A stretch of DNA of 64,000 nt, from the NCBI GenBank assembly GCA_964635445.1, contig CAZWNK010000001.1:3422-67421 (forward strand), read 5' to 3'. A program made the translations under genes and the position numbers. The notes beneath the pieces were generated by a model. It worked only from the letters and a program-made list of their open reading frames with translations. It was not told where the DNA came from and did no database searches. This document shows positions 8,817 to 48,726 of the stretch, piece after piece. Position 1 is the first letter of the stretch. Every line of letters starts with the position of its first letter. This stretch comes from an uncultured Candidatus Saccharibacteria bacterium (GTDB taxonomy: Bacteria; Patescibacteriota; Saccharimonadia; Saccharimonadales; CAZDBS01).

Positions 8817-9464
8817 CTAACGATTTGCGATAACTTTGTCTACGAGACCATATGTCTTCGCTTCATCAGCGTCAAACCATCGGTCACGTTCCATATCGTC
8901 ATGGATTTTACTGACTTTTTGACCGGTATTTTTAGCCATGATCTCTTCCATGCGGCGCTTCAACTTCGTCATTTGCTCGAGCGTAATTTCCATATCCGTG
9001 ATTTGTCCTTGAGTGCCTGCGTGCGGCTGATGAATCATGACCTTGGAGTTGGGCAGTGCAAGTCGCTTACCTTTGGCACCGGAACTAAGTAAAAATGCTG
9101 CAGCACTTGCAGCCATACCGATAGCAACTGTATTCACATCTGATTTGATGTAATTCATGACGTCGTAGATGGCCAAAGAGTCATAGACACTACCACCGGG
9201 ACTATTGATATACATGAAAATATCTTTCTTGGGGTCTTCGTACTCAAGATGCAAGAGTTGGGCTACGATGAGGTTTGCTGTGTGTTCGTTGACTTGATCG
9301 CCGAGGAATATGATTCGCTCTTTGAGCAATCGTGAATAGATATCGTAGGCGCGTTCGACTCGCCCATCTGATTCGATAACTGTTGGCACTAGTATAGAAC
9401 TTTTCGGATCTTTCATATCACTACCATTTGTATTCATGAGATTCCCCTCTAATAATTGCACCAA
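8817..9464 (-). CDS. clpP: ATP-dependent Clp protease proteolytic subunit
   Basis: 215 aa with ClpP family similarity, including the MIHQPHAG and [11 protein letters not shown] regions of the active-site Ser/His environment. Confidence 0.93.
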
Positions 9465-9477
9465 TCACTATATAGAA

Positions 9478-9504
9478 TTAGCACTCTAATGTCTAGAGTG
9501 CTAA
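9478..9504 (-). promoter_or_regulatory. CIRCE operator (HrcA-type), TTAGCACTC-N9-GAGTGCTAA, about 25 nt upstream of the clpP ATG
   Basis: The sequence ttagcactc taatgtcta gagtgctaa matches the CIRCE consensus exactly (9-9-9). Confidence 0.7.
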
Positions 9505-9592
9505 TTCACTCGCGATGCTCGTTCATAGGAAGAGGCGAATCCTCCTCCTATCCCTCAGCTGAAGCTTCGGTGTTCTCCTCCCCACTTGAGAC
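9505..9592 (-). repeat. Conserved structured leader module, copy A (GGGGAGGAGAACACCG box plus 10-bp hairpin at 9526-9550), between terminator and CIRCE
   Basis: Homologous to copies at 29565-29671 and 10081-10140. The hairpin taggaggagg/cctcttccta is read on the minus strand, with a G-U pair. Stem sequences differ between copies with compensatory changes. Confidence 0.5.
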
Positions 9593-9619
9593 AATAACTC
9601 GAAATAAATTCGAGTTATT
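9593..9619 (-). terminator. Rho-independent terminator after ORF116 (AATAACTCGA-ataaa-TCGAGTTATT)
   Basis: Perfect 10-bp stem flanked by A/T runs, 17 nt downstream of the ORF116 stop on the minus strand. Confidence 0.55.
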
Positions 9620-9635
9620 GTAATTTGTTTTAATT

Positions 9636-9986
9636 CTACGCAACTATTGATTCAGTATCACTCTCTTTGGTGTGTATACCGAAGAGTTCAGCTGCTCGTG
9701 CATCAACGATAAGCATGTCTAGCTCGTCGTCGCCTTCTCTATGAACGCAGGTTTGTAGAAGTGCTTTTACGGTTTCCGGTTCTATAACAAGTTGCTCTGT
9801 CTGTGATGGCGTTAGATTTCCGTTTTTATCAACTTTTTTTCTAACAGCTTCGAATACTGCCGATGCGATCGAGGCCTCGTACATTGTAGATCGGAGAGAC
9901 AGGAGTTCAGTGGCGGCACGTATTTGTGATGGGGTTTCAAGAACTCCGCCTTGGATACGGTCATATTGGTCAAATAAAATATTCAT
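9636..9986 (-). CDS. hypothetical protein (116 aa), flanked by inverted copies of the structured module
   Basis: ORF between clpP and tig with no recognisable family. Bracketed by module copies A and C in inverted orientation. Confidence 0.55.
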   Translation of the reverse strand: MNILFDQYDRIQGGVLETPSQIRAATELLSLRSTMYEASIASAVFEAVRKKVDKNGNLTPSQTEQLVIEPETVKALLQTCVHREGDDELDMLIVDARAAELFGIHTKESDTESIVA

Positions 9987-10042
9987 ATCTTGCTTTTAGC
10001 ACAGATTGTAACCAGATGTAAAGCCTCGCAATAAACCGACGA

Positions 10043-10073
10043 CTAAGATATTGGATTCACTCCAATATCTTAG
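10043..10073. repeat. Perfect 13-bp stem hairpin (CTAAGATATTGGA-ttcac-TCCAATATCTTAG)
   Basis: Seen directly in the sequence. Abuts module copy C. Confidence 0.5.
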
Positions 10074-10080
10074 ATTCCTT

Positions 10081-10140
10081 TGGGGAGGAGAACACCGGAG
10101 CGCAGCGAAGGGATAAGAGGAGGATTCACCTCCTCTTATG
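10081..10140 (+). repeat. Conserved structured module, copy C (plus orientation; TGGGGAGGAGAACACCG box plus 11-bp hairpin at 10113-10139), immediately 3' of tig
   Basis: Same module as copies A and B in opposite orientation, with no CIRCE. Hairpin ataagaggagg/cctcctcttat is perfect. Confidence 0.5.
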
Positions 10141-10150
10141 AGTGAGTAGA

Positions 10151-11440
10151 TTATGCTTTTGCATAATCTATGAGACGGGCAAGTGTTTTCTCGCTCATCA
10201 TCTGGCTCATGATATTGCGACGAGCTTCGGATTTGTCGAGTTCGGCTTGCATCGCTGGGTCGGACGCATACTGTCCTTTGAGAAGCTGGATTCGGATTTC
10301 CAGTTCTTCTGGCGTGATCTCGATTTTCTCTTTTTCGGAGATCTCGCTCAGGACGATGCCGGTTTTGACTCGTCGTTCAGCTTCTGGTCGCAGTTCCTTC
10401 TCCTTGAGTTCTTCTTCATCTTTGTATCCAGCTTGGGTTAAGTACTCACTGATTGTCATGCCTCGGTAAACGAGATTCTGCTTGAAATCAACAAGTGCTC
10501 TTTCTAGTTGCTCCCTGACTAGGACTTCTGGAAGTGCGGCTTTACTTTTATCGACAATTTCGCTCAAGAGTTCGTTTTCATAGGTATTCTGAGCTCGCGA
10601 TTGCTTCTCGTGCTCGAGTTGAGTTTTGATATCTTTACGAAGCTCAGCCACAGATTTGAACGGGCCAGACTTGGCGGCAAAGTCGGCGTCCACTTTAGGC
10701 AATACGACTTCTTGGACTTTATTGACTGTGACTGTGAAATCTACCTTGACTCCCGCGAGAGGCTTGTGTCCATAATCTTTCGGAAAGGTGACTTTAAACG
10801 TCTTCACTTCGCCTGCTTTCATACCGACAACATTCTCTTCAAACCCTGGGATAAACGTATTAGATCCAAGTACAAGCGGATATTCTTTGCCACTTGCTCC
10901 CGCAACCGCTTCACCTTTGGCGTCTTTACCATCAAAATCAATCATGACTTGATCGCCATCTTTGGATGCACGGTCGACATCTTTTTTCTCACTCATTCGA
11001 AGTCGGAGATTTTCGATAACGTCATCGACATCTTTGTCATCAACCGGTTCGACTTTAGGTGATTTTTTGATCTTCGTATAGTCTGGCAACGAGACACTAC
11101 CAACCACCTGCACCACAGCCACGAACGAAAGAGTCGTAAATGGCACAAATGCACTCAGTGTGACATCAGGCCGATCGATCGGTTTAAGCTTTTCTTGGAT
11201 CGCCGCATCCATGTAGAGACGGCTGATCGTATCTTCTAAAAATTCTGTTTGCAAGACATTTTGATCGACACTCTTCTCGACCATCGCTATCGGCGCTTTG
11301 CCTTTACGAAACCCGCCAACTTTCAGGTCTTTTGCGAGTCGCTGGAGTGTCTTCTGTTTGAAATGCTCGAGTTCATTGCTATCGGCTGTGATCTCTAGTT
11401 TGATTTCTGTCTCAGATGTATTGGTTCTCTTGATTTGCAT
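10151..11440 (-). CDS. tig: trigger factor
   Basis: 429 aa with trigger-factor N-terminal ribosome-binding region, a PPIase-like middle and C-terminal domain. A hairpin at 10147-10170 overlaps the stop. Confidence 0.9.
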   Translation of the reverse strand: MQIKRTNTSETEIKLEITADSNELEHFKQKTLQRLAKDLKVGGFRKGKAPIAMVEKSVDQNVLQTEFLEDTISRLYMDAAIQEKLKPIDRPDVTLSAFVPFTTLSFVAVVQVVGSVSLPDYTKIKKSPKVEPVDDKDVDDVIENLRLRMSEKKDVDRASKDGDQVMIDFDGKDAKGEAVAGASGKEYPLVLGSNTFIPGFEENVVGMKAGEVKTFKVTFPKDYGHKPLAGVKVDFTVTVNKVQEVVLPKVDADFAAKSGPFKSVAELRKDIKTQLEHEKQSRAQNTYENELLSEIVDKSKAALPEVLVREQLERALVDFKQNLVYRGMTISEYLTQAGYKDEEELKEKELRPEAERRVKTGIVLSEISEKEKIEITPEELEIRIQLLKGQYASDPAMQAELDKSEARRNIMSQMMSEKTLARLIDYAKA

Positions 11441-11465: not shown

Positions 11466-11654
11466 TTAACGAACAATAATATAAACAGATATAAAGAGGG
11501 CCGCAAAAAAAGCGACAAAACATATCACACTAAGATATGTGCGAAAATTCTGCTCATGCGGCACTGCATAGCCGACACTTCGGCCTATAAATATACCGAC
11601 AAAAACGAGCGGTAGACTCAACACAAGAAGGAAGCTCGCGGCTACCCATTTCAT
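11466..11654 (-). CDS. small hydrophobic protein (62 aa, two predicted TM segments)
   Basis: ORF with strongly hydrophobic composition between hisS and tig. No known family. Confidence 0.3.
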   Translation of the reverse strand: MKWVAASFLLVLSLPLVFVGIFIGRSVGYAVPHEQNFRTYLSVICFVAFFAALFISVYIIVR

Positions 11655-26998: not shown

Positions 26999-29491
26999 CT
27001 ATTCACTGACGAGTTTGAACGAGAGTTTGTCACTCTTAGCATCGACGGCGATTGTATCGCCTTTTTTATAGGTTCCTGACAATAGGCCATCAGCGATTTC
27101 GTCTTCGAGTTTGTCTTGTATGATACGGCGCAGTGGTCGGACGCCATTCTGCGCGTCGTACCCATGATCAATCAGATAGCGCTTGACGCTTGGTGTGACA
27201 TGGAGTGCCAGACCTGTCTTGCGTAAACGGTCACTAAGTTCTTTGAGCTGAAGCTCGAGAATACTTTCGGCATTTTTCTTAGTCAATGCGCGGAAAACGA
27301 TGATTTTGTCAATACGGTTTATGAGCTCTGGGCGCATCAACTTCTTCACCTCATCCATTACCTTGTCGGTATTCGTGTTGTGCATGGATTCAAGATCTTT
27401 GGCATCATCTTTGGTTGTCGCACTGAAGCCGAGCGTGGCTTCTTTCTGAAGTTTCTGTGCTCCGATGTTGCTAGTCATGATGATGACTGTATTCGTGAAA
27501 TCAACACGACGGCCTTTAGCATCTGTGAGGTATCCGTCTTCAAGCATCTGCAGAAGGATGTTGAATACTTCAGGATGAGCTTTTTCGATTTCATCGAAAA
27601 GTACAAGCGAATACGGTTGTCGTCTGACTTTTTCTGTCAACTGACCTGCATCTTCATAGCCGACATAGCCAGCTGGAGCCCCAACAAGACGCGACACAGT
27701 GTGGCGCTCACCAAACTCACTCATATCAATTTTGACAAGAGATTTCTCACTACCAAAATATTCACGAGCCAGGACTCGTGCCAGCTCTGTTTTACCGACA
27801 CCAGTAGGTCCGAGAAATATAAACGAACCAATCGGACGACGCGCATCACTGATACCTGAACGGTTTCGACGAATCGCACGCGCCACGGCCGCGACAGCTT
27901 CATCCTGACCCATGACATGTGCTCCTAAAAGTTTTTCGAGTCCCAATAGAGCCTTGGCTTCTGTCTTCACAACTTTCGACACCGGCACGCCAGTCATCGT
28001 AGCGACAACATGCGCAATGTCATCACTCGTCAAAGCAAGGTCAGTCGTCTCACTTTCCGATGTTTTCAGTGCTTCGAGTTGCTTATTGATCTGACTCATG
28101 CGAGTTTTGTATTTCGCAGCCTTTTCGTAGTCCTCGGCATCAACAGCTTCTTCCATGCGAGCCGTGACACTTCGGAGTTCCTTTTGAAGTTTGCGTTGTT
28201 CGGGTTTTACTTTATGGCGCTCAATCCGTACATGAGATGCCGCCTCATCGATCAGGTCGATGGCTTTATCAGGCATGTAACGGTCATTGACATACCGTTT
28301 TGCCATCAATACAGCATCTTCGATGACTTCATCCGAGATCTTCACACCGTGATGCGACTCATATTGCTTCTTAAGCCCTTTGAGAATGGCAATTGTCTCC
28401 TGAACAGTAGTCTCAGGGACGACAACGGGCTGAAAACGACGTTCCAGGGCGACATCTTTCTCTACATATTTGCGATACTCGTCCATAGTGGTCGCCCCGA
28501 TGACGCGCATCTTGCCACGAGCCAGCGCAGGTTTGAGTATGTTGCCAGCATCGATAGAACCTTCGGCCGCTCCAGCACCCACGATTAAGTGTAGCTCGTC
28601 GATAAACACGATGATATTGGGGTCGCTGACGATTTCATCCATGACTTTTTTGAGACGTTCTTCAAATTCGCCACGATATTTCGTACCCGCCACCATGCCA
28701 GCAAGATCCAACATCACGACGCGTTTCTCCAATAACACATCAGGCACATCCTCTTGAACAATACGTTGCGCGAGTCCCTCGACGATGGCTGTTTTACCGA
28801 CCCCAGGTTCACCGATGAGCACTGGATTGTTTTTTGTACGTCGACCTAGAATTGTCACCATTCGTTTGATCTGAGGTTCACGACCGACAACAGGATCGAG
28901 TTCACCCATGCGAGCTTTTTCAGTCAGGTCAGTGCCAAAATAGTCGAGTGCACTACCACGCTTCTTGCCTTTGCGCTTTGTACGAGTCGAACTTTCATCA
29001 TCATCTTGTTGTCGATTGAGATACTGCTCCAATTCATTCATGATGGAGTCCACATTGACATTCATCTCGTATAGCAACTGAGTGCCTCGCGCGTTTTTCT
29101 GGCTGAGTAGCCCGTAGAGGATGTGCTCGGTACCGCAATAATCTTGACTGTATTCTTGAGCGATATCCCAACTCATTTTAAGTGTCAGTTTGGCTGTCTC
29201 GCTCAACCCTTTACTGCCGAGATTGATGACCAGTGTCTTTGGCGTCATATTTAGTGCCATCCGCGCACGATCAATAGAAACACCGTTCGTTTGCAATATC
29301 TTCGATCCGATTGAGCCATCTTGAGCCAAGACACCGAGTAAAAGGTGCTCCGTCCCGATGTATGCGGAACCGAAGCTCCGCGCTATGGCGTCAGCATGCT
29401 GCAAACTCGCCCGAGCATTATCGGTAAGGTGTCGTATAAAATCTGCAAATTCTTGATAGTCTTCTGGCATAAAATCCCACTTTCTACCCAT
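26999..29491 (-). CDS. clpC: ATP-dependent Clp protease ATP-binding subunit ClpC (class III two-AAA+ unfoldase)
   Basis: Clp_N repeats and two AAA+ modules (GEPGVGKT; GPTGVGKT) with a sensor and C-terminal D2-small domain. True start may be the second Met (MPEDYQEF). Confidence 0.9.
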
Positions 29492-29537
29492 CCAAGTTAG
29501 CGGTTTTATTTCCTGGGATACACCTATGATACTAAAA

Positions 29538-29564
29538 CTAGCACTCTCAATGCAAGAGTGCTAA
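29538..29564 (-). promoter_or_regulatory. CIRCE-like operator (CTAGCACTC-N9-GAGTGCTAA) upstream of clpC
   Basis: 17 of 18 consensus positions match, with exact N9 spacing, about 50-70 nt upstream of the clpC start. Confidence 0.65.
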
Positions 29565-29671
29565 ACGCTATGCTGACGCTGGCTTATGAGAAGAGGTGAT
29601 TCCTCTTCTCATCCCTCTCCGCTTCCACTTACAGCTGCAGCGGATTCGGTGCTCTTCTCCCCAAATGAGAC
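29565..29671 (-). repeat. Conserved structured leader module, copy B (GGGGAGAAGAGCACCG box plus perfect 10-bp hairpin at 29587-29611)
   Basis: Same order as copy A: terminator, module, CIRCE, clp gene. Stem tgagaagagg/cctcttctca has two compensatory pair changes relative to copy A. Confidence 0.5.
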
Positions 29672-29699
29672 AAAAAGACCGGAATAAATCCGGCTTTTT
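29672..29699 (-). terminator. Rho-independent terminator after nusA (AAAAAGCCGGA-tttat-TCCGGCTTTTT)
   Basis: Perfect stem with a T-tract, 24 nt downstream of the nusA stop. Confidence 0.6.
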
Positions 29700-29723
29700 G
29701 TAAGTTTAACTAGCCACGAGCCG

Positions 29724-30914
29724 TTATTCGCTCTTCTCGGAAGTCTCTTCTCCATGTTCATCGATAGCACTGAGGAGGGAGCTTTCGAGCTCGTCTTTGC
29801 GCTTCAGCTTCTGCACGACTTGCTTCTCCTTGACCTCAACCTCACCACCTTCTTCGGTTACAGGTGTGCCGTCACGGACAGCAGCAATATCAAGCTCATA
29901 GCCAGTCAGCTTGCTAGCAAGACGAACGTTTTGACCACCTTTACCGATAGCTATCGAAAGCTGGTCTTCGGGAACACGAACGATCGCGTGTTTTTTGGCT
30001 TCATCGATTTCGACCACAGCAACTTGTGTTGGTGAGAGTGCATTACGGATAAAGCTTTGAGCATCTTCATCAAAAACGATGATGTCGATCTTTTCTTGAT
30101 CACCAATCTCGCCCATGACTGCCTGAACACGGGTACCGTGTCCACCGACGAATGTGCCAACCGGGTCTACGCCTTGTACTTTGCTAGCAACTGCTAACTT
30201 CGTTCGTACTCCGGCCTCACGAGCAATCGCTCGGATTTCTACGGCGCCGCTTTCCATCTCAGGAACTTCTTGACGGAACAGGTATTCGATAAATTCAGTG
30301 TTGGCGCGCGAAACGATCAACTGTGGACCACGAGGCCCTCTTTCAACATCCTTGAGAAATACTTTGACACGAGCTCCAATACTCATTCGTTCACCAGGAA
30401 TCTGTTCGCTCATTGGCATGATAGCTTGCGCTTTGCCCAGGTCTAGTCGTACCAAACGTCCCTCTACCCGTGATACGGTCGCGTTGATGACTGTGCCGAT
30501 CTTATCTTCATACTCATTCATAACGATCTCTCGCTCTGCTTCTCGGAGTCGTTGCAGTATAACTTGCTTAGCGGTTTGTGCTGCTACGCGACCAAATGTC
30601 TTTGGTTTGTCCTTGATCTCGACAACGTCTTCCAATTTGGCGTCTTTATTGATCTTTTTGGCATCCTCAAGTGTAATCTGCGTGAAATCATCTTCGACAT
30701 TCTCGACAACGACTTTGCTGATAAATACTTCTACATCACCCGTGTTTACGTTTATTTGAGCGCGAACTTCTTGCTCGCGATCACCGAAATCTTTGCGATA
30801 CGCAGCAGCGAGTGCTTGTTCGAGCACTTCCTGAACGGTATCTTCTGGTAAGTTTTTTTCCTCAGCAATTTGTCGCACAGCGAGTGCGAGAGCTTTGGCG
30901 TCTATTTCATTCAT
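29724..30914 (-). CDS. nusA: transcription termination/antitermination protein NusA
   Basis: 396 aa with NusA N-terminal, S1 and two KH domains, ending in an acidic C-terminal tail. Confidence 0.93.
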   Translation of the reverse strand: MNEIDAKALALAVRQIAEEKNLPEDTVQEVLEQALAAAYRKDFGDREQEVRAQINVNTGDVEVFISKVVVENVEDDFTQITLEDAKKINKDAKLEDVVEIKDKPKTFGRVAAQTAKQVILQRLREAEREIVMNEYEDKIGTVINATVSRVEGRLVRLDLGKAQAIMPMSEQIPGERMSIGARVKVFLKDVERGPRGPQLIVSRANTEFIEYLFRQEVPEMESGAVEIRAIAREAGVRTKLAVASKVQGVDPVGTFVGGHGTRVQAVMGEIGDQEKIDIIVFDEDAQSFIRNALSPTQVAVVEIDEAKKHAIVRVPEDQLSIAIGKGGQNVRLASKLTGYELDIAAVRDGTPVTEEGGEVEVKEKQVVQKLKRKDELESSLLSAIDEHGEETSEKSE

Positions 30915-34562: not shown

Positions 34563-34594
34563 TTTTCGCACTTTTGACAGCAAAAGTGCGAATG
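34563..34594. repeat. Palindromic hairpin GGTTTT-CGCACTTTTG-acag-CAAAAGTGCG-AAT, 3' of rplS (family copy 1)
   Basis: Perfect 10-bp stem. A second copy at 48691-48726 has a covarying stem. A further hairpin (CCAGCTTTAGCTGG) follows. Confidence 0.5.
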
Positions 34595-48690: not shown

Positions 48691-48726
48691 GGTTTTGCAC
48701 ACTTTTGACAGCAAAAGTGTGAATAG
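48691..48726. repeat. Palindromic hairpin GGTTTT-GCACACTTTTG-acag-CAAAAGTGTG-AAT, 3' of uvrB/NUDIX (family copy 2)
   Basis: Homologous to 34563-34594 with a compensatory G-C to A-T change in the stem. Followed by a second hairpin (GTCCGGGCGATACCGGAC). Confidence 0.5.

Follow-up and report, generated by a model that had tools for sequence, protein, structure and literature searches.

The closest described systems to the element reported here are the PIT/BoxC/TMECO repeats of E. coli and other bacteria (Hoyne et al. 2000; Holder et al. 2015, PMC4666352). These repeats are intergenic and often arranged as inverted pairs, and an oligonucleotide of this kind forms a stable triplex in vitro (PMC4666352). 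For TMECO, in vivo footprinting gave no sign of the triplex, and the element showed neither promoter nor terminator activity. TMECO copies are near-identical, have no association with particular genes and mark unstable loci; the copies of BoxC/PIT/TMECO are too alike for any covariation to be visible. To our knowledge, neither a function nor selection on the triplex has been found in the 25 years since these repeats became known.

The cassette that we have analyzed lies in a 64,000-nt stretch of DNA from a Saccharibacterium (the window), while the hosts of PIT/TMECO are proteobacteria or cyanobacteria. It is related to BoxC/PIT/TMECO, sharing with them three one-strand blocks, G*G-C and A*A-T triads, 9-nt stems, a strictly intergenic position, the possibility of closely spaced inverted pairs, a complementary strand that belongs to the matching pyrimidine-motif class, and the lack of coding capacity and of an associated transposase. 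It is also distinct from them. The block order is that of class I (third strand, purine, pyrimidine) instead of the class II order of TMECO, the first loop is self-folding and 22–41 nt long compared with 3–6 nt, and there are 3 copies in 64 kb, compared with tens to hundreds. Moreover, unlike PIT/TMECO, the cassette is joined to a terminator hairpin and tied to two specific promoters, and, unlike TMECO, it keeps an orthologous site across saturated divergence and shows three-way covariation.

Four other systems bear some likeness to the cassette. REP/BIME and MITE-type elements are also short structured repeats located past gene 3' ends in either orientation, sometimes as inverted pairs, with hairpins that are kept by compensatory change and can serve as terminators or mRNA stabilisers. 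The cassette differs from them in its very low copy number, in its conserved orthologous placement at a clp promoter, and in lacking terminal inverted repeats within the unit, a target duplication and any visible RAYT or transposase. RNA thermometers (ROSE, fourU) share an SD-like AGGAGG paired with CCUCCU and the adjacency of heat-shock genes; the cassette, in contrast, is placed upstream of the promoter, does not include the clp Shine-Dalgarno or start codon, has no Rfam match, and carries a stem of 11 perfect or near-perfect base pairs that is far too stable for a thermometer. It looks more like a triple-helix-prone DNA element than like an RNA thermometer. As with the CtsR boxes and sigma-B promoters of Bacillus and the ClgR operators of Actinobacteria, clpP and clpC share an upstream block beside the main stress operator, but the block has neither a CtsR heptad repeat nor a ClgR-type motif, and protein operators need neither the hairpin covariation nor the mirror symmetry that we describe below. 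Finally, the alphaproteobacterial ar14 ('cuckoo'-type) sRNAs (RF02344) resemble the opposite strand of the cassette in their C/U-rich CCUCCUCCCC-like stretches, hairpins, terminator and several paralogous copies, although the cassette's 18–20 bits compare with a gathering score of 58.8, the phyla are unrelated and no promoter could be detected.

An initial annotation of the window had described three copies of a structured module of about 85 nt, with a conserved box and a covarying hairpin, in clpP and clpC leaders. We recovered all three copies (Table 1): copy A upstream of clpP, copy B upstream of clpC and copy C near tig. The box motif GGGGAGRAGARCACCG occurs only at the three boxes listed, and a full degenerate pattern (box, N8-38, GGGAT, R9, N5, Y9, AT) matches the same three sites, with no match in dinucleotide shuffles. 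The unit is larger than annotated, with 97 nt in copies A and C and 116 nt in copy B, since an extra 5' hairpin belongs to it. The order of its parts is a 13–14-bp terminator-type hairpin (T0), 7–8 nt, a 16-nt purine box, a variable linker, GGG and the hairpin P2. T0 is an A-tract/T-tract hairpin of the bidirectional-terminator type, and P2 has the annotated stem sequences, with 11 bp and a 5-nt loop, its 5' arm being entirely purine and its 3' arm entirely pyrimidine.

Table 1. Positions of the cassette parts and neighbouring features in the window.
Feature	Position	Strand	Sequence or description
Copy A, T0	9591..9621	-	13-bp perfect stem, 5-nt loop; A-rich before, T-rich after
Copy A, purine box	9568..9583	-	GGGGAGGAGAACACCG; core GGAGGAGAA, putative third strand (stem A)
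Copy A, linker and conserved GGG	9552..9567	-	linker AAGCTTCAGCTGA
Copy A, P2	9525..9551	-	ATAGGAGGAGG / ATTCG / CCTCTTCCTAT; 11 bp, one G.T
clpP CIRCE operator	9478..9504	.	-35 TAGACA (9490-9495) in spacer; -10 TATAGT (9467-9472)
ORF116	9636..9986	-	small near-orphan gene between inverted copies A and C
Copy C, 5' hairpin H	10043..10073	+	13-bp perfect stem, loop TTCAC
Copy C, purine box	10082..10097	+	GGGGAGGAGAACACCG
Copy C, P2	10113..10139	+	ATAAGAGGAGG / ATTCA / CCTCCTCTTAT; 11 bp perfect
Copy B, T0	29670..29701	-	bidirectional intrinsic terminator past nusA; GCCGG stem, T-run
Copy B, purine box	29647..29662	-	GGGGAGAAGAGCACCG
Copy B, linker and GGG	29613..29646	-	own hairpin (CCGCT...AGCGG)
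Copy B, P2	29586..29612	-	ATGAGAAGAGG / AATCA / CCTCTTCTCAT; 11 bp perfect
clpC CIRCE operator	29538..29564	.	-35 TTGCAT (29550-29555) in spacer; -10 TATCAT (29526-29531)

The order annotated for copies A and B on the coding strand (terminator of the upstream gene, module, CIRCE, clp gene) was verified, with T0 of copy A placed 14 nt past the ORF116 stop. Copy C, in contrast, is oriented the other way round and borders on the stop codon of tig, 11 nt from the end of its P2, and hence lies in no leader at all. Its hairpin H occupies the position of T0, 8 nt ahead of the box. Copies A and C form an inverted pair, the longest inverted repeat in the window, that flanks a 116-codon ORF (ORF116). 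The linker of copy B exceeds those of the other copies by 18 nt. When we scanned the window for purine/pyrimidine hairpins, this type appeared only at the three copies, the two further matches being unrelated, terminator-like hairpins. The cassette is not coding, given that the reading frame shifts between copies A and C, whose linkers differ by 1 nt, and that start codons are not conserved.

We found a fourth, orthologous copy upstream of clpP in GCA_964503775.1 (locus L225, 4919-5023, 108.7 bits), where it is the sole copy in 15 kb. ClpP and Tig of the two genomes are 93% and 79% identical, respectively, and their four-fold degenerate sites are 27–35% identical, that is, saturated. Even so, the cassette is identical in 80 of 97 positions (about 82%), including 16/16 in the box, 25/27 in P2 and 5/5 in GGGAT, with a near-invariant loop (ATTCR). 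As box and P2 are kept while four-fold sites are saturated, the cassette is a real element, subject to purifying selection and linked to clp. The association with clp genes is therefore genuine, with a cassette at both CIRCE sites of the window and one upstream of clpP in the relative, and the abundant, randomly placed REP-type repeat that the initial annotation had considered as a refutation is not what we see at 3 copies in 64 kb and 1 in 15 kb. The GCA_964503775.1 locus has no copy C, and tig abuts the ORF there. ORF116 adjoins the cassette in both genomes and is syntenic in GCA_964503775.1; it has a coding-like composition with low GC3 and is 34–36% identical to its homologue, while the box is invariant. 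ORF116 gave no Pfam, PHROGs or PADLOC match, neither it nor its homologue matched a DNA-binding family, and its single-sequence structure prediction (pLDDT 46) was too poor for a fold search.

The compensatory changes that had been annotated in the stem were confirmed, as P2 is 100% paired on the three-copy alignment with 3 of its 11 pairs changed on both sides, and they still hold with the orthologous copy added, the basis being four copies and three events. T0 of copy A is homologous to those of copy B and L225, with 5 or more compensated pairs in the stem. The compensated pairs in both hairpins, together with the orthologous copy, support selection on the structure. When folded as ssDNA, the three copies share a common architecture with z-scores of -6.0 to -6.5. 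Whole segments of 76–95 nt fold at -24.6 to -33.1 kcal/mol (ViennaRNA, which counts Watson-Crick and wobble pairs only). The consensus fold reaches -53.3 kcal/mol on the clp-sense strand and -45.4 kcal/mol on the opposite one. Copy A is indeed better paired on the clp-sense strand, through one G.T pair, as had been noted, but the preference for that strand drawn from it is weak, because the same pair is G-C in the orthologous copy of the related genome and tells little about which strand is relevant.

The core of the box is the mirror image of the purine arm of P2, and box, purine arm and pyrimidine arm co-vary. Box and purine arm match in 26 of 27 cells in mirror orientation, compared with 20/27 for the best direct match (column-permutation test, p about 4.5e-4, for a relation that we noticed post hoc). 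Given this mirror core, the three blocks obey the G*G-C/A*A-T rule of the class I (purine-motif) intrastrand triplex. Perfect triads are 9/9 in copies B and C, 8/9 in L225 and 7/9 in copy A. Under the ITxF definition of class I (PMC4666352), which takes third-strand, purine and pyrimidine blocks of 6–15 nt with at most one mismatch and allows A*A-T, G*G-C or T*A-T triads, copies B, C and L225 qualify and copy A exceeds the mismatch limit; an ITxF-like scan gave B and C as perfect 9-triad motifs, with an expectation of 0.01 per shuffled window. Such definitions allow loops of 1–6 nt (Holder) or 0–10 nt (Hoyne). Loop 2, with 5 nt, is within these limits, but loop 1, which folds on itself, exceeds them, having 41 nt in B and 22–23 nt in A, C and L225. 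The blocks match the class I intrastrand triplex rule, in a PIT/BoxC-like manner, and from these rules we infer that the cassette could form a triplex.

Sequence changes among the copies follow this rule. Both box substitutions of copy B are mirrored in the purine arm and compensated in the 3' arm, and in copy C the one compensated pair change turns the single imperfect triad of the A type into a perfect one. This imperfect triad is shared by both A-type copies across two species, so a perfect triplex would not be strictly required. The 18-nt insertion of copy B is a self-contained hairpin in the connecting loop, as expected for a folded structure rather than for elements held at a fixed -35/-10 spacing. 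As for other readings of the box, we set aside box and GGGAT as the -35 and -10 of an alternative sigma factor (35 nt apart in B, against 16–17 nt in A, C and L225), and found no sigma factor among the window ORFs scanned against Pfam. A sigma-32-like reading of the opposite-strand CCCCA was discarded as its -35 is not conserved, and HAIR, CtsR and ClgR motifs were not present. A switch with Watson-Crick pairing of box and 3' arm would need a direct repeat, for which there is no consistent register, and it would be beaten energetically by P2 in every case.

The window has only two CIRCE sites, both perfect (TTAGCACTC-N9-GAGTGCTAA), upstream of clpP and clpC, and each has a cassette 20–21 nt upstream in the same orientation; it is this neighbouring operator that marks the HrcA/CIRCE regulon, the cassette itself not being a CIRCE. 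A -35 hexamer (TTGACN, TAGACA or TTGCAT) falls within the CIRCE spacer at eight loci from seven genomes (the window and six relatives), with a TAnnnT -10 located 16–18 nt downstream of it. The clpP-type layout is also found in L128, L129, L136-138 and L225, and the clpC-type upstream of clpC in L216 and L217. With these elements, assigned as sigma-70 promoters by conserved consensus matches, the clp transcript would start downstream of CIRCE, leaving the cassette, at about -65 to -165, outside the clp mRNA leader. This speaks against the annotated reading of the module as a 5'-UTR element such as a heat-shock leader or thermosensor. P2 is more than 85 nt from the clpP ATG and more than 110 nt from the clpC ATG, and the cassette does not reach the clp Shine-Dalgarno or start codon. 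The centre of P2 is about 45–47 bp upstream of that of the -35, in A and B alike. These comparisons also show that clpP and clpC of Saccharibacteria are HrcA/CIRCE genes whose promoter, by its consensus, is integrated into the operator; one clade has added a second, unexplained layer upstream.

Regarding its distribution, the cassette has so far been seen in the window genome and one relative. A covariance model run with filters off found only the three copies in the 64-kb window and no copy in a set of 88 loci, made up of about 85 clpP/clpC loci of related as well as other bacteria and three other pieces of the source strain. Exact matches to ClpP, NusA, S7 and a 341-aa protein are short same-strain contigs with identical cassettes and nothing beyond the window, and the window ClpC and NusA are each alone in their 90% cluster. 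The cassette was missing from relatives with 57–84% ClpP identity: metagenome loci around ClpP relatives with 57–71% identity had it in no case, and CIRCE in three only, and L224 (84%) had no hairpin within 35 nt of CIRCE. The sequence of L128 (94%) ends 70 nt upstream of clpP. The full degenerate pattern had no match in the JGI metagenome collection, nor did the pattern lacking loop and 3' arm in a viral collection. For the 16-mer box, at least 120 stretches were listed from a genome collection, all unrelated and mostly high-GC, with GGGAT and a hairpin downstream in none of those listed. Some of the listed stretches are alphaproteobacterial BoxC-like hairpins. In Rfam 15, only three tRNAs of the window reached the gathering threshold and the cassette gave no match, its best sub-threshold similarities being to miRNA and ar14 models (E 0.09–0.6).

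At both clpP and clpC, this conserved, lineage-restricted, cis-acting non-coding cassette occupies the whole interval from the upstream gene's stop codon to the HrcA/CIRCE core promoter. Our best guess, held tentatively and with somewhat less than even confidence, is that it would act as structure-forming DNA, an insulator or modulator of the HrcA-controlled clp promoters. Most likely it would work at the DNA level, via the purine-rich sense strand, whenever the duplex there is opened by transcription reading through, by replication or by the negative supercoiling that trails an RNA polymerase leaving the clp promoter. T0 would terminate the upstream gene and the hairpin-plus-triplex would be a second barrier or a supercoil-absorbing structure, both together insulating or tuning the promoter, and the cassette would be excluded from the clp mRNA made at CIRCE. 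Against this reading, copy C has the full structure and no adjacent promoter. Nor is insulation a general need, as CIRCE immediately follows the upstream ORF in relatives that do not have the cassette. Besides, the conservation of the box (16/16), GGGAT and ATTCR goes beyond what a DNA structure requires and points to recognition by a protein or RNA. That the triplex itself is functional and kept by selection, as a switch responsive to supercoiling, transcription or temperature at a fixed distance upstream of the clpP/clpC promoters, in which the purine box would fold back onto P2 on the sense DNA strand of a candidate-phyla-radiation bacterium, we consider unlikely. If true, the three-way covariation would be the first comparative-genomic evidence of purifying selection on triplex-forming potential in bacteria. 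Three-way covariation, an orthologous site conserved across saturated divergence and the placement at two defined stress promoters make a role of non-B DNA in bacteria testable on a small, well-defined element.

Conservation beyond structural need is also what an operator would show. The box and the 27-bp palindrome P2 might be protein sites, at about -80 to -125, for a second clp regulator, an activator or repressor alongside HrcA, and clp genes are commonly under dedicated regulators, e.g. CtsR or ClgR. The constant distance from P2 to the -35 fits this reading, which we regard as unlikely, as does a direct repeat, AACGAGTG-CC-AACGAGTG, between P2 and CIRCE in L225. The product of ORF116 could be the regulator, its gene being beside the cassette in both genomes and copy C upstream of it; however, it diverges far more than the box and matches no DNA-binding family. 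A dimer on a palindrome does not need paired half-site changes, yet all three P2 changes are compensated. The linker between the sites ranges from 12 to 31 nt, and a mirror repeat is no repeat for a DNA-binding protein, so the covariation of box and arm would be left unexplained. The same features are arranged, on the opposite strand, as in a classical sRNA gene, with P2, a C/U-rich anti-Shine-Dalgarno-like seed (CGGUGUUCUCCUCCCC) and T0 as terminator; A and B would be divergent from the CIRCE region and C, which on that strand begins 11 nt past the tig stop, would be cut from the tig 3' UTR. The T-tails of T0 on that strand are good in A (AATTTGTTTT) and B (CTTTTTGT), the A-tract ahead of T0 is conserved despite co-directional flanking genes, the box is conserved in a seed-like manner and differs between paralogous copies as in sibling sRNAs, and the only Rfam similarities, weak ones to ar14 (E 0.25 and 0.62), fall on exactly that strand. 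But these scores are far under the gathering score, and no sigma-70-like promoter or conserved spacer TAnnnT was found upstream of P2 on that strand in A, B and L225, in genomes whose promoters otherwise look canonical. In addition, P2 of copy A has an A-C mismatch there, the consensus fold is the weaker of the two and the hairpin after copy C has a poor U-tail. We rate the sRNA as rather unlikely. Should either the sRNA or the operator be right instead, the element would be a new regulator linked to heat shock, in a group of bacteria about whose regulation very little is known.

One could also argue that the cassette is a structured RNA in a long clp leader, a thermosensor or attenuator, transcribed from an unrecognised upstream promoter or by read-through of T0 from ORF116 or nusA. 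The clp genes of B. subtilis have a second upstream promoter, the orientation of the cassette to clpP/clpC is constant in A, B and L225, the lone wobble is a G.U on the clp-sense strand, which also gives the better consensus fold, and CIRCE with the T-run that follows could end or pause the transcript. We nevertheless give this reading a low probability. The conserved promoter is downstream, within CIRCE, and the terminator-type hairpin at the 5' end of the cassette would make read-through RNA a minority; the one site ahead of T0 that resembles a promoter is no better than chance and unconserved in B or L225. Masking of the clp Shine-Dalgarno is impossible, since it is more than 60 nt away from the cassette and separated from it by CIRCE and the promoter, and copy C points into the end of tig. 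As purine-motif triple helices are not formed in RNA (PMC4666352), a leader RNA would also leave the three-way covariation unexplained. Very improbable, in our opinion, is a selfish or neutral REP/MITE-like intergenic repeat without function for the cell, spread by a transposase or by CIRCE-seeded ectopic recombination, with A and C as terminal inverted repeats of an insertion carrying ORF116. Its narrow lineage, with no matches in metagenomes or viral contigs, the inverted pair bracketing a near-orphan gene, the lack of copy C in the relative and the hairpin compensation known from REP-type elements would all fit. However, ORF116 is syntenic in the relative and hence not a fresh passenger, no target-site duplication is visible flanking 9518-10146, and no transposase or integrase was found among about 40 window ORFs scanned against Pfam. 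The copies are few instead of many and dispersed, the clpP copy is orthologous and still about 82% identical where neutral sites are saturated, and the CIRCE promoters of the window, which are only two, account for two of the three copies.

The purine box GGGGAGRAGARCACCG was found exactly three times in the window, as the initial annotation had claimed, and a degenerate pattern of the whole module matched three sites, compared with none in 100 shuffles. The hairpin stems read exactly as described there, and a scan for perfect purine/pyrimidine hairpins returned the three cassette hairpins together with two unrelated terminator-like ones. Regarding the compensatory changes, the 11-bp hairpin P2 stays fully paired throughout the three-copy alignment, with three pairs changed on both sides, while slid-partner controls gave only 46-59% pairing. 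Since the box, pattern, stem and pairing checks all hold, the observation is correct and not due to chance. The proposed module size of about 85 nt, however, was too small: copies A (upstream of clpP) and C (beside tig) span 97 nt each and copy B (upstream of clpC) 116 nt. Each copy opens with a long perfect hairpin (T0 in A and B, H in C) located 7-8 nt ahead of the box, and the extra 18 nt of copy B fold into a separate hairpin within the linker between box and P2. The T0 hairpins of A and B are homologous, with common flanks ACAA...TTGTCTCA, a similar loop and compensated stem changes. The flanks TTGTCTCA, CACCG and GGGAT and the loop ATTCR are conserved. Folded as single-stranded DNA, all three units show the same two-hairpin architecture (z-scores -6.0 to -6.5), and five of the eight window hairpins with a perfect stem of at least 10 bp fall in 9475-10170. 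Rfam holds no family for the cassette, in agreement with the earlier statement that it resembles no named motif; the best sub-threshold matches include ar14, on the opposite strand (E 0.25-0.6).

The source is a Candidatus Saccharimonadales from a thinly sampled lineage. The relatives found for its ClpP are all Saccharibacteria-named, the nearest being 94%, 84% and then at most 77% identical. The minus strand holds every gene around the cassettes, and no transposase, integrase or sigma factor was detected among about 40 window ORFs scanned against Pfam. On the coding strand, A and B do share one order: upstream stop codon, T0, box, linker, P2, 20-21 nt, CIRCE (the HrcA operator) and the clp gene. 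This P2-to-CIRCE distance applies to all three promoter-linked copies, namely A, B and the one in the relative GCA_964503775.1 (L225). The link to clp genes is also borne out, with only two CIRCE sites in the window and a cassette at both. Copy C, which has no gene to lead, does not fit a place in clp leaders. It is on the other strand, with its P2 end 11 nt from the tig stop codon, and forms with A the longest inverted repeat in the window; the two bracket the 116-codon gene ORF116, box ends pointing inward.

Positions of the features in the window and in the compared loci
Feature	Sequence	Positions	Strand
First locus, order hisS, 62-codon ORF, tig, ORF116, clpP, rpoB	window		minus
clpP	window	8817-9437	minus
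CIRCE-promoter segment, clpP	window	9467-9504	
P2-CIRCE spacer repeat	window	9505-9524	
P2-CIRCE spacer repeat	L225	5024-5044	
P2-CIRCE spacer repeat	L222	3451-3471	
T0 of copy A	window	9591-9621	
ORF116 (upstream-slot ORF)	window	9636-9986	minus
Upstream-slot ORF	L225	4574-4909	
Upstream-slot ORF	L216	2563-2910	
Upstream-slot ORF	L217	2478-2846	
Upstream-slot ORF	L129	9375-9851	
Hairpin H of copy C	window	10043-10073	
tig-stop palindrome	window	10147-10170	
tig	window	10151-11440	minus
62-codon ORF	window	11466-11654	
62-codon ORF counterpart	L225	3063-3278	
Second locus, clpC (then 323-aa unknown protein, radA)	window	26999-29470	minus
CIRCE-promoter segment, clpC	window	29526-29564	
T0 of copy B	window	29670-29701	
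Second locus, nusA	window	29724-30914	minus
Palindrome pair past rplS and uvrB	window	34565-34592; 48698-48721	
N run	L222	3527-3625	
16-mer box	L063	300-315; 2534-2549; 6376-6391	

A promoter scan of the clpP strand gave TAGACA-17-TATAGT, with the -35 in the 9-nt CIRCE spacer and the -10 just past the downstream arm, and the clpC counterpart, as read from the sequence, is TTGCAT-18-TATCAT. Related loci (clpP in five related genomes, L128, L129, L136, L137 and L138, and clpC in two more, L216 and L217) carry TTGAC(C/G/T) in the CIRCE spacer and, after 16-18 nt, TATAGT, TATACT, TACTAT, TATAAT or TATTAT. The design is also present in L225, overall in eight loci from seven genomes. In these eight loci it holds that clpP and clpC are CIRCE (HrcA) genes in Saccharimonadales, with the sigma-70 -35 built into the operator spacer. 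Because the promoter is conserved in CIRCE, transcription would start downstream of it; P2 would then lie about 65-90 nt, and the box about 105-145 nt, upstream of this predicted start. The clpP leaders are very short in the Saccharimonadales loci examined. In L222, the assembly of the relative has about 100 N with the same CIRCE-promoter segment (TAGCACTCTTGCATTGAGAGTGCTAGTTTTATATAGTAAGGAATGTAATTATTTG) on both flanks, likely a scaffolding artefact at the palindrome.

An exhaustive HMMER search of 1.8 billion representatives with ORF116 returned a single homologue, P0242 (34-36% identity), in GCA_964503775.1 and in the same synteny (hisS, tig, ORF111, clpP, rpoB). Between both genomes ClpP is 93% and Tig 79% identical, and identity at four-fold degenerate sites is 27-35%, that is, saturation. 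The ORF-clpP spacer is 80% identical and in the relative contains a full cassette (108.7 bits, the sole copy in 15 kb), which matches copy A at 16/16 box positions, 5/5 positions of GGGAT and 25/27 of P2. Its P2 is a perfect 11-bp stem, with G-C where copy A has G.T, and its T0 a perfect 14-bp stem with compensated changes relative to the window T0. Retention of spacer and cassette at an orthologous site while four-fold sites are saturated indicates that the cassette is under strong purifying selection; it also backs the clp association and speaks against a neutral or selfish repeat. The relative has no counterpart of copy C: its tig ends 3 nt ahead of the ORF. Either the window lineage acquired C, therefore, or the other lineage lost it. 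The relative's clpP CIRCE and T0 are closer to the clpC than to the clpP versions of the window, which could reflect gene conversion between the two loci. Same-strain contigs from several samples carry identical cassette copies. A covariance model found no cassette in about 85 clpP/clpC loci of related and other bacteria, the pattern had no match in JGI metagenomes or viral contigs, and the cassette was not found in the 35 nt available from the 84% ClpP relative.

Read backwards, without complementing, the P2 purine arm gives the 9-nt core of the box. A, C and L225 have GGAGGAGAA as core and B has GGAGAAGAG; the arm reads AAGAGGAGG in C and GAGAAGAGG in B, and A and L225 share AGGAGGAGG. The mirror match extends to 26 of 27 cells in one fixed register, against 20 in the best direct-repeat register; a match of 26 is reached in about 0.045% of arm-column permutations, either orientation. 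The 3' arm pairs with the purine arm by Watson-Crick rules, so box, purine arm and pyrimidine arm would make up G*G-C and A*A-T triads in which box and purine arm run antiparallel. This arrangement is how a class I purine-motif intrastrand triplex is defined. In a scan that followed the ITxF rules as published but tolerated a long first loop, B and C came out as perfect 9-triad motifs, with 0.01 per shuffled window; triads number 9/9 in B and C, 8/9 in L225 and 7/9 in A. Three evolutionary events obey the mirror rule. B is set apart by two box substitutions, both of them mirrored in its own purine arm and compensated in the pyrimidine arm, and in C, compared with the ancestral A type, the single compensated pair change (G-C to A-T) repairs the only imperfect triad. 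Spotted after inspection and in four copies, the mirror relation is suggestive, not proven. A riboswitch-like competing Watson-Crick helix would need a direct repeat, and no consistent register was found for one.

Intrastrand triplex motifs are found in bacteria, notably BoxC/PIT/TMECO (Holder et al., PMC4666352), which is always intergenic, without strand bias, and forms close inverted pairs at five E. coli K-12 loci. A BoxC/PIT/TMECO oligonucleotide gives a stable triplex in vitro, while in vivo footprinting shows none; the element has no promoter or terminator activity and is linked to locally unstable regions (PMC4666352). Among intrastrand triplex motifs, class I or II on one strand entails class III or IV on the other (PMC4666352). 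Like BoxC/PIT/TMECO, the cassette follows a three-block logic, lies between genes and occurs in an inverted pair. However, the cassette is class I and BoxC/PIT/TMECO class II, and the cassette's connecting loop of 22-41 nt, which folds on itself, is longer than the formal definition of triplex motifs allows. Unlike BoxC/PIT/TMECO, it has a very low copy number, is joined to a terminator hairpin, is associated with two specific promoters, and is conserved and co-varying instead of repeated in near-identical form. Hence, we set it beside BoxC/PIT/TMECO as a variant and not a member. Intergenic hairpins of the BoxC/PIT-like CCCCTCC...GGGGAGG type in Alphaproteobacteria contain the 16-mer box too, namely in Devosia (L075), Microvirga (L113), an alphaproteobacterial MAG (L011) and Asticcacaulis (L089, continuing ...GCGCA...GGGAT); these are probably convergent low-complexity matches and not homologues. 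In L063 (Thermoanaerobaculia MAG OZ220482.1), the 16-mer lies in three near-identical segments of at least about 145 nt, within 8 kb and on both strands, apparently coding and unrelated to the cassette.

The anatomy, the selection, the placement upstream of the conserved promoter, the association with both CIRCE promoters and the three-way relation of the sequences are shown by these results. We infer that the relevant form of the cassette is DNA, since the purine motif is a DNA structure (RNA does not form purine-motif triplexes; PMC4666352), A, B and L225 have their purine blocks on the sense (non-template) strand, and the one wobble is tolerated on that strand. In the most likely of the readings, though a tentative one, the cassette could be a structure-forming insulator or modulator of the clp promoters. 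T0 would end transcription of the upstream gene, and the hairpin and third-strand fold would form on unwinding by read-through transcription, replication or negative supercoils, the latter arising behind polymerase leaving an induced clp promoter. The fold would then act as an extra barrier or supercoil sink, insulating or tuning the HrcA-controlled promoter. One could argue against it from the long connecting loop, the imperfect triad persisting in the A type and copy C having no nearby promoter; conservation of box, GGGAT and loop suggests, moreover, that the sequence is read by something. If the cassette were instead the operator of a second regulatory protein for clp, possibly ORF116, this conservation and the fixed distance would be explained, but not the compensated palindrome or the mirror rule; we consider this somewhat unlikely.

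An sRNA on the opposite strand would have a fitting architecture: a 5' hairpin is followed by a C/U-rich seed and by T0, whose T-tails are good, and the A-tract is conserved. Yet it lacks any conserved promoter and would carry an A-C mismatch in copy A; we consider it unlikely. The leader RNA or thermosensor put forward for clpP and clpC by the initial annotation is contradicted by the conserved consensus promoter downstream of the cassette. Such a leader would call for a hidden promoter further upstream or for transcripts that run through T0; besides, the cassette leaves the clp ribosome-binding site untouched, and a thermometer could hardly have so stable a stem, 11 bp and perfect. We find this reading quite improbable. 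A selfish repeat, contradicted by the orthologous conservation, is highly improbable.

Around the cassettes, the P2-CIRCE spacer contains a direct repeat one helical turn apart, AACGAGCA-TC-GCGAGTGA in the window and AACGAGTG-CC-AACGAGTG in the relative, which could be a candidate site for a response-regulator-type activator. Directly upstream of the clpP/clpC CIRCE promoters, every genome examined has a small protein with no known domain (100-158 aa). Those compared or searched in databases are mutually unrelated, except ORF116 and its one homologue; this slot may be either a hot spot for gene birth and turnover or the place of a fast-evolving clp partner. The 62-codon ORF is hydrophobic and kept in the relative (65% nucleotide identity), and the hisS-tig interval is a small membrane peptide gene, not an intergenic region. 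Across the last tig codons and the stop lies a perfect 10-bp palindrome, TAGATTATGC-TTTT-GCATAATCTA, with 7 nt between it and copy C's outer end, the same place as CIRCE beside A and B. Finally, two copies of a perfect 10-12 bp palindrome, TTCGCACTTTTG-ACAG-CAAAAGTGCGAA, 90% identical over 31 nt, lie just past the stop codons of rplS and uvrB, one at each; they look like members of a second hairpin family shared within this genome, of terminator- or operator-like type.
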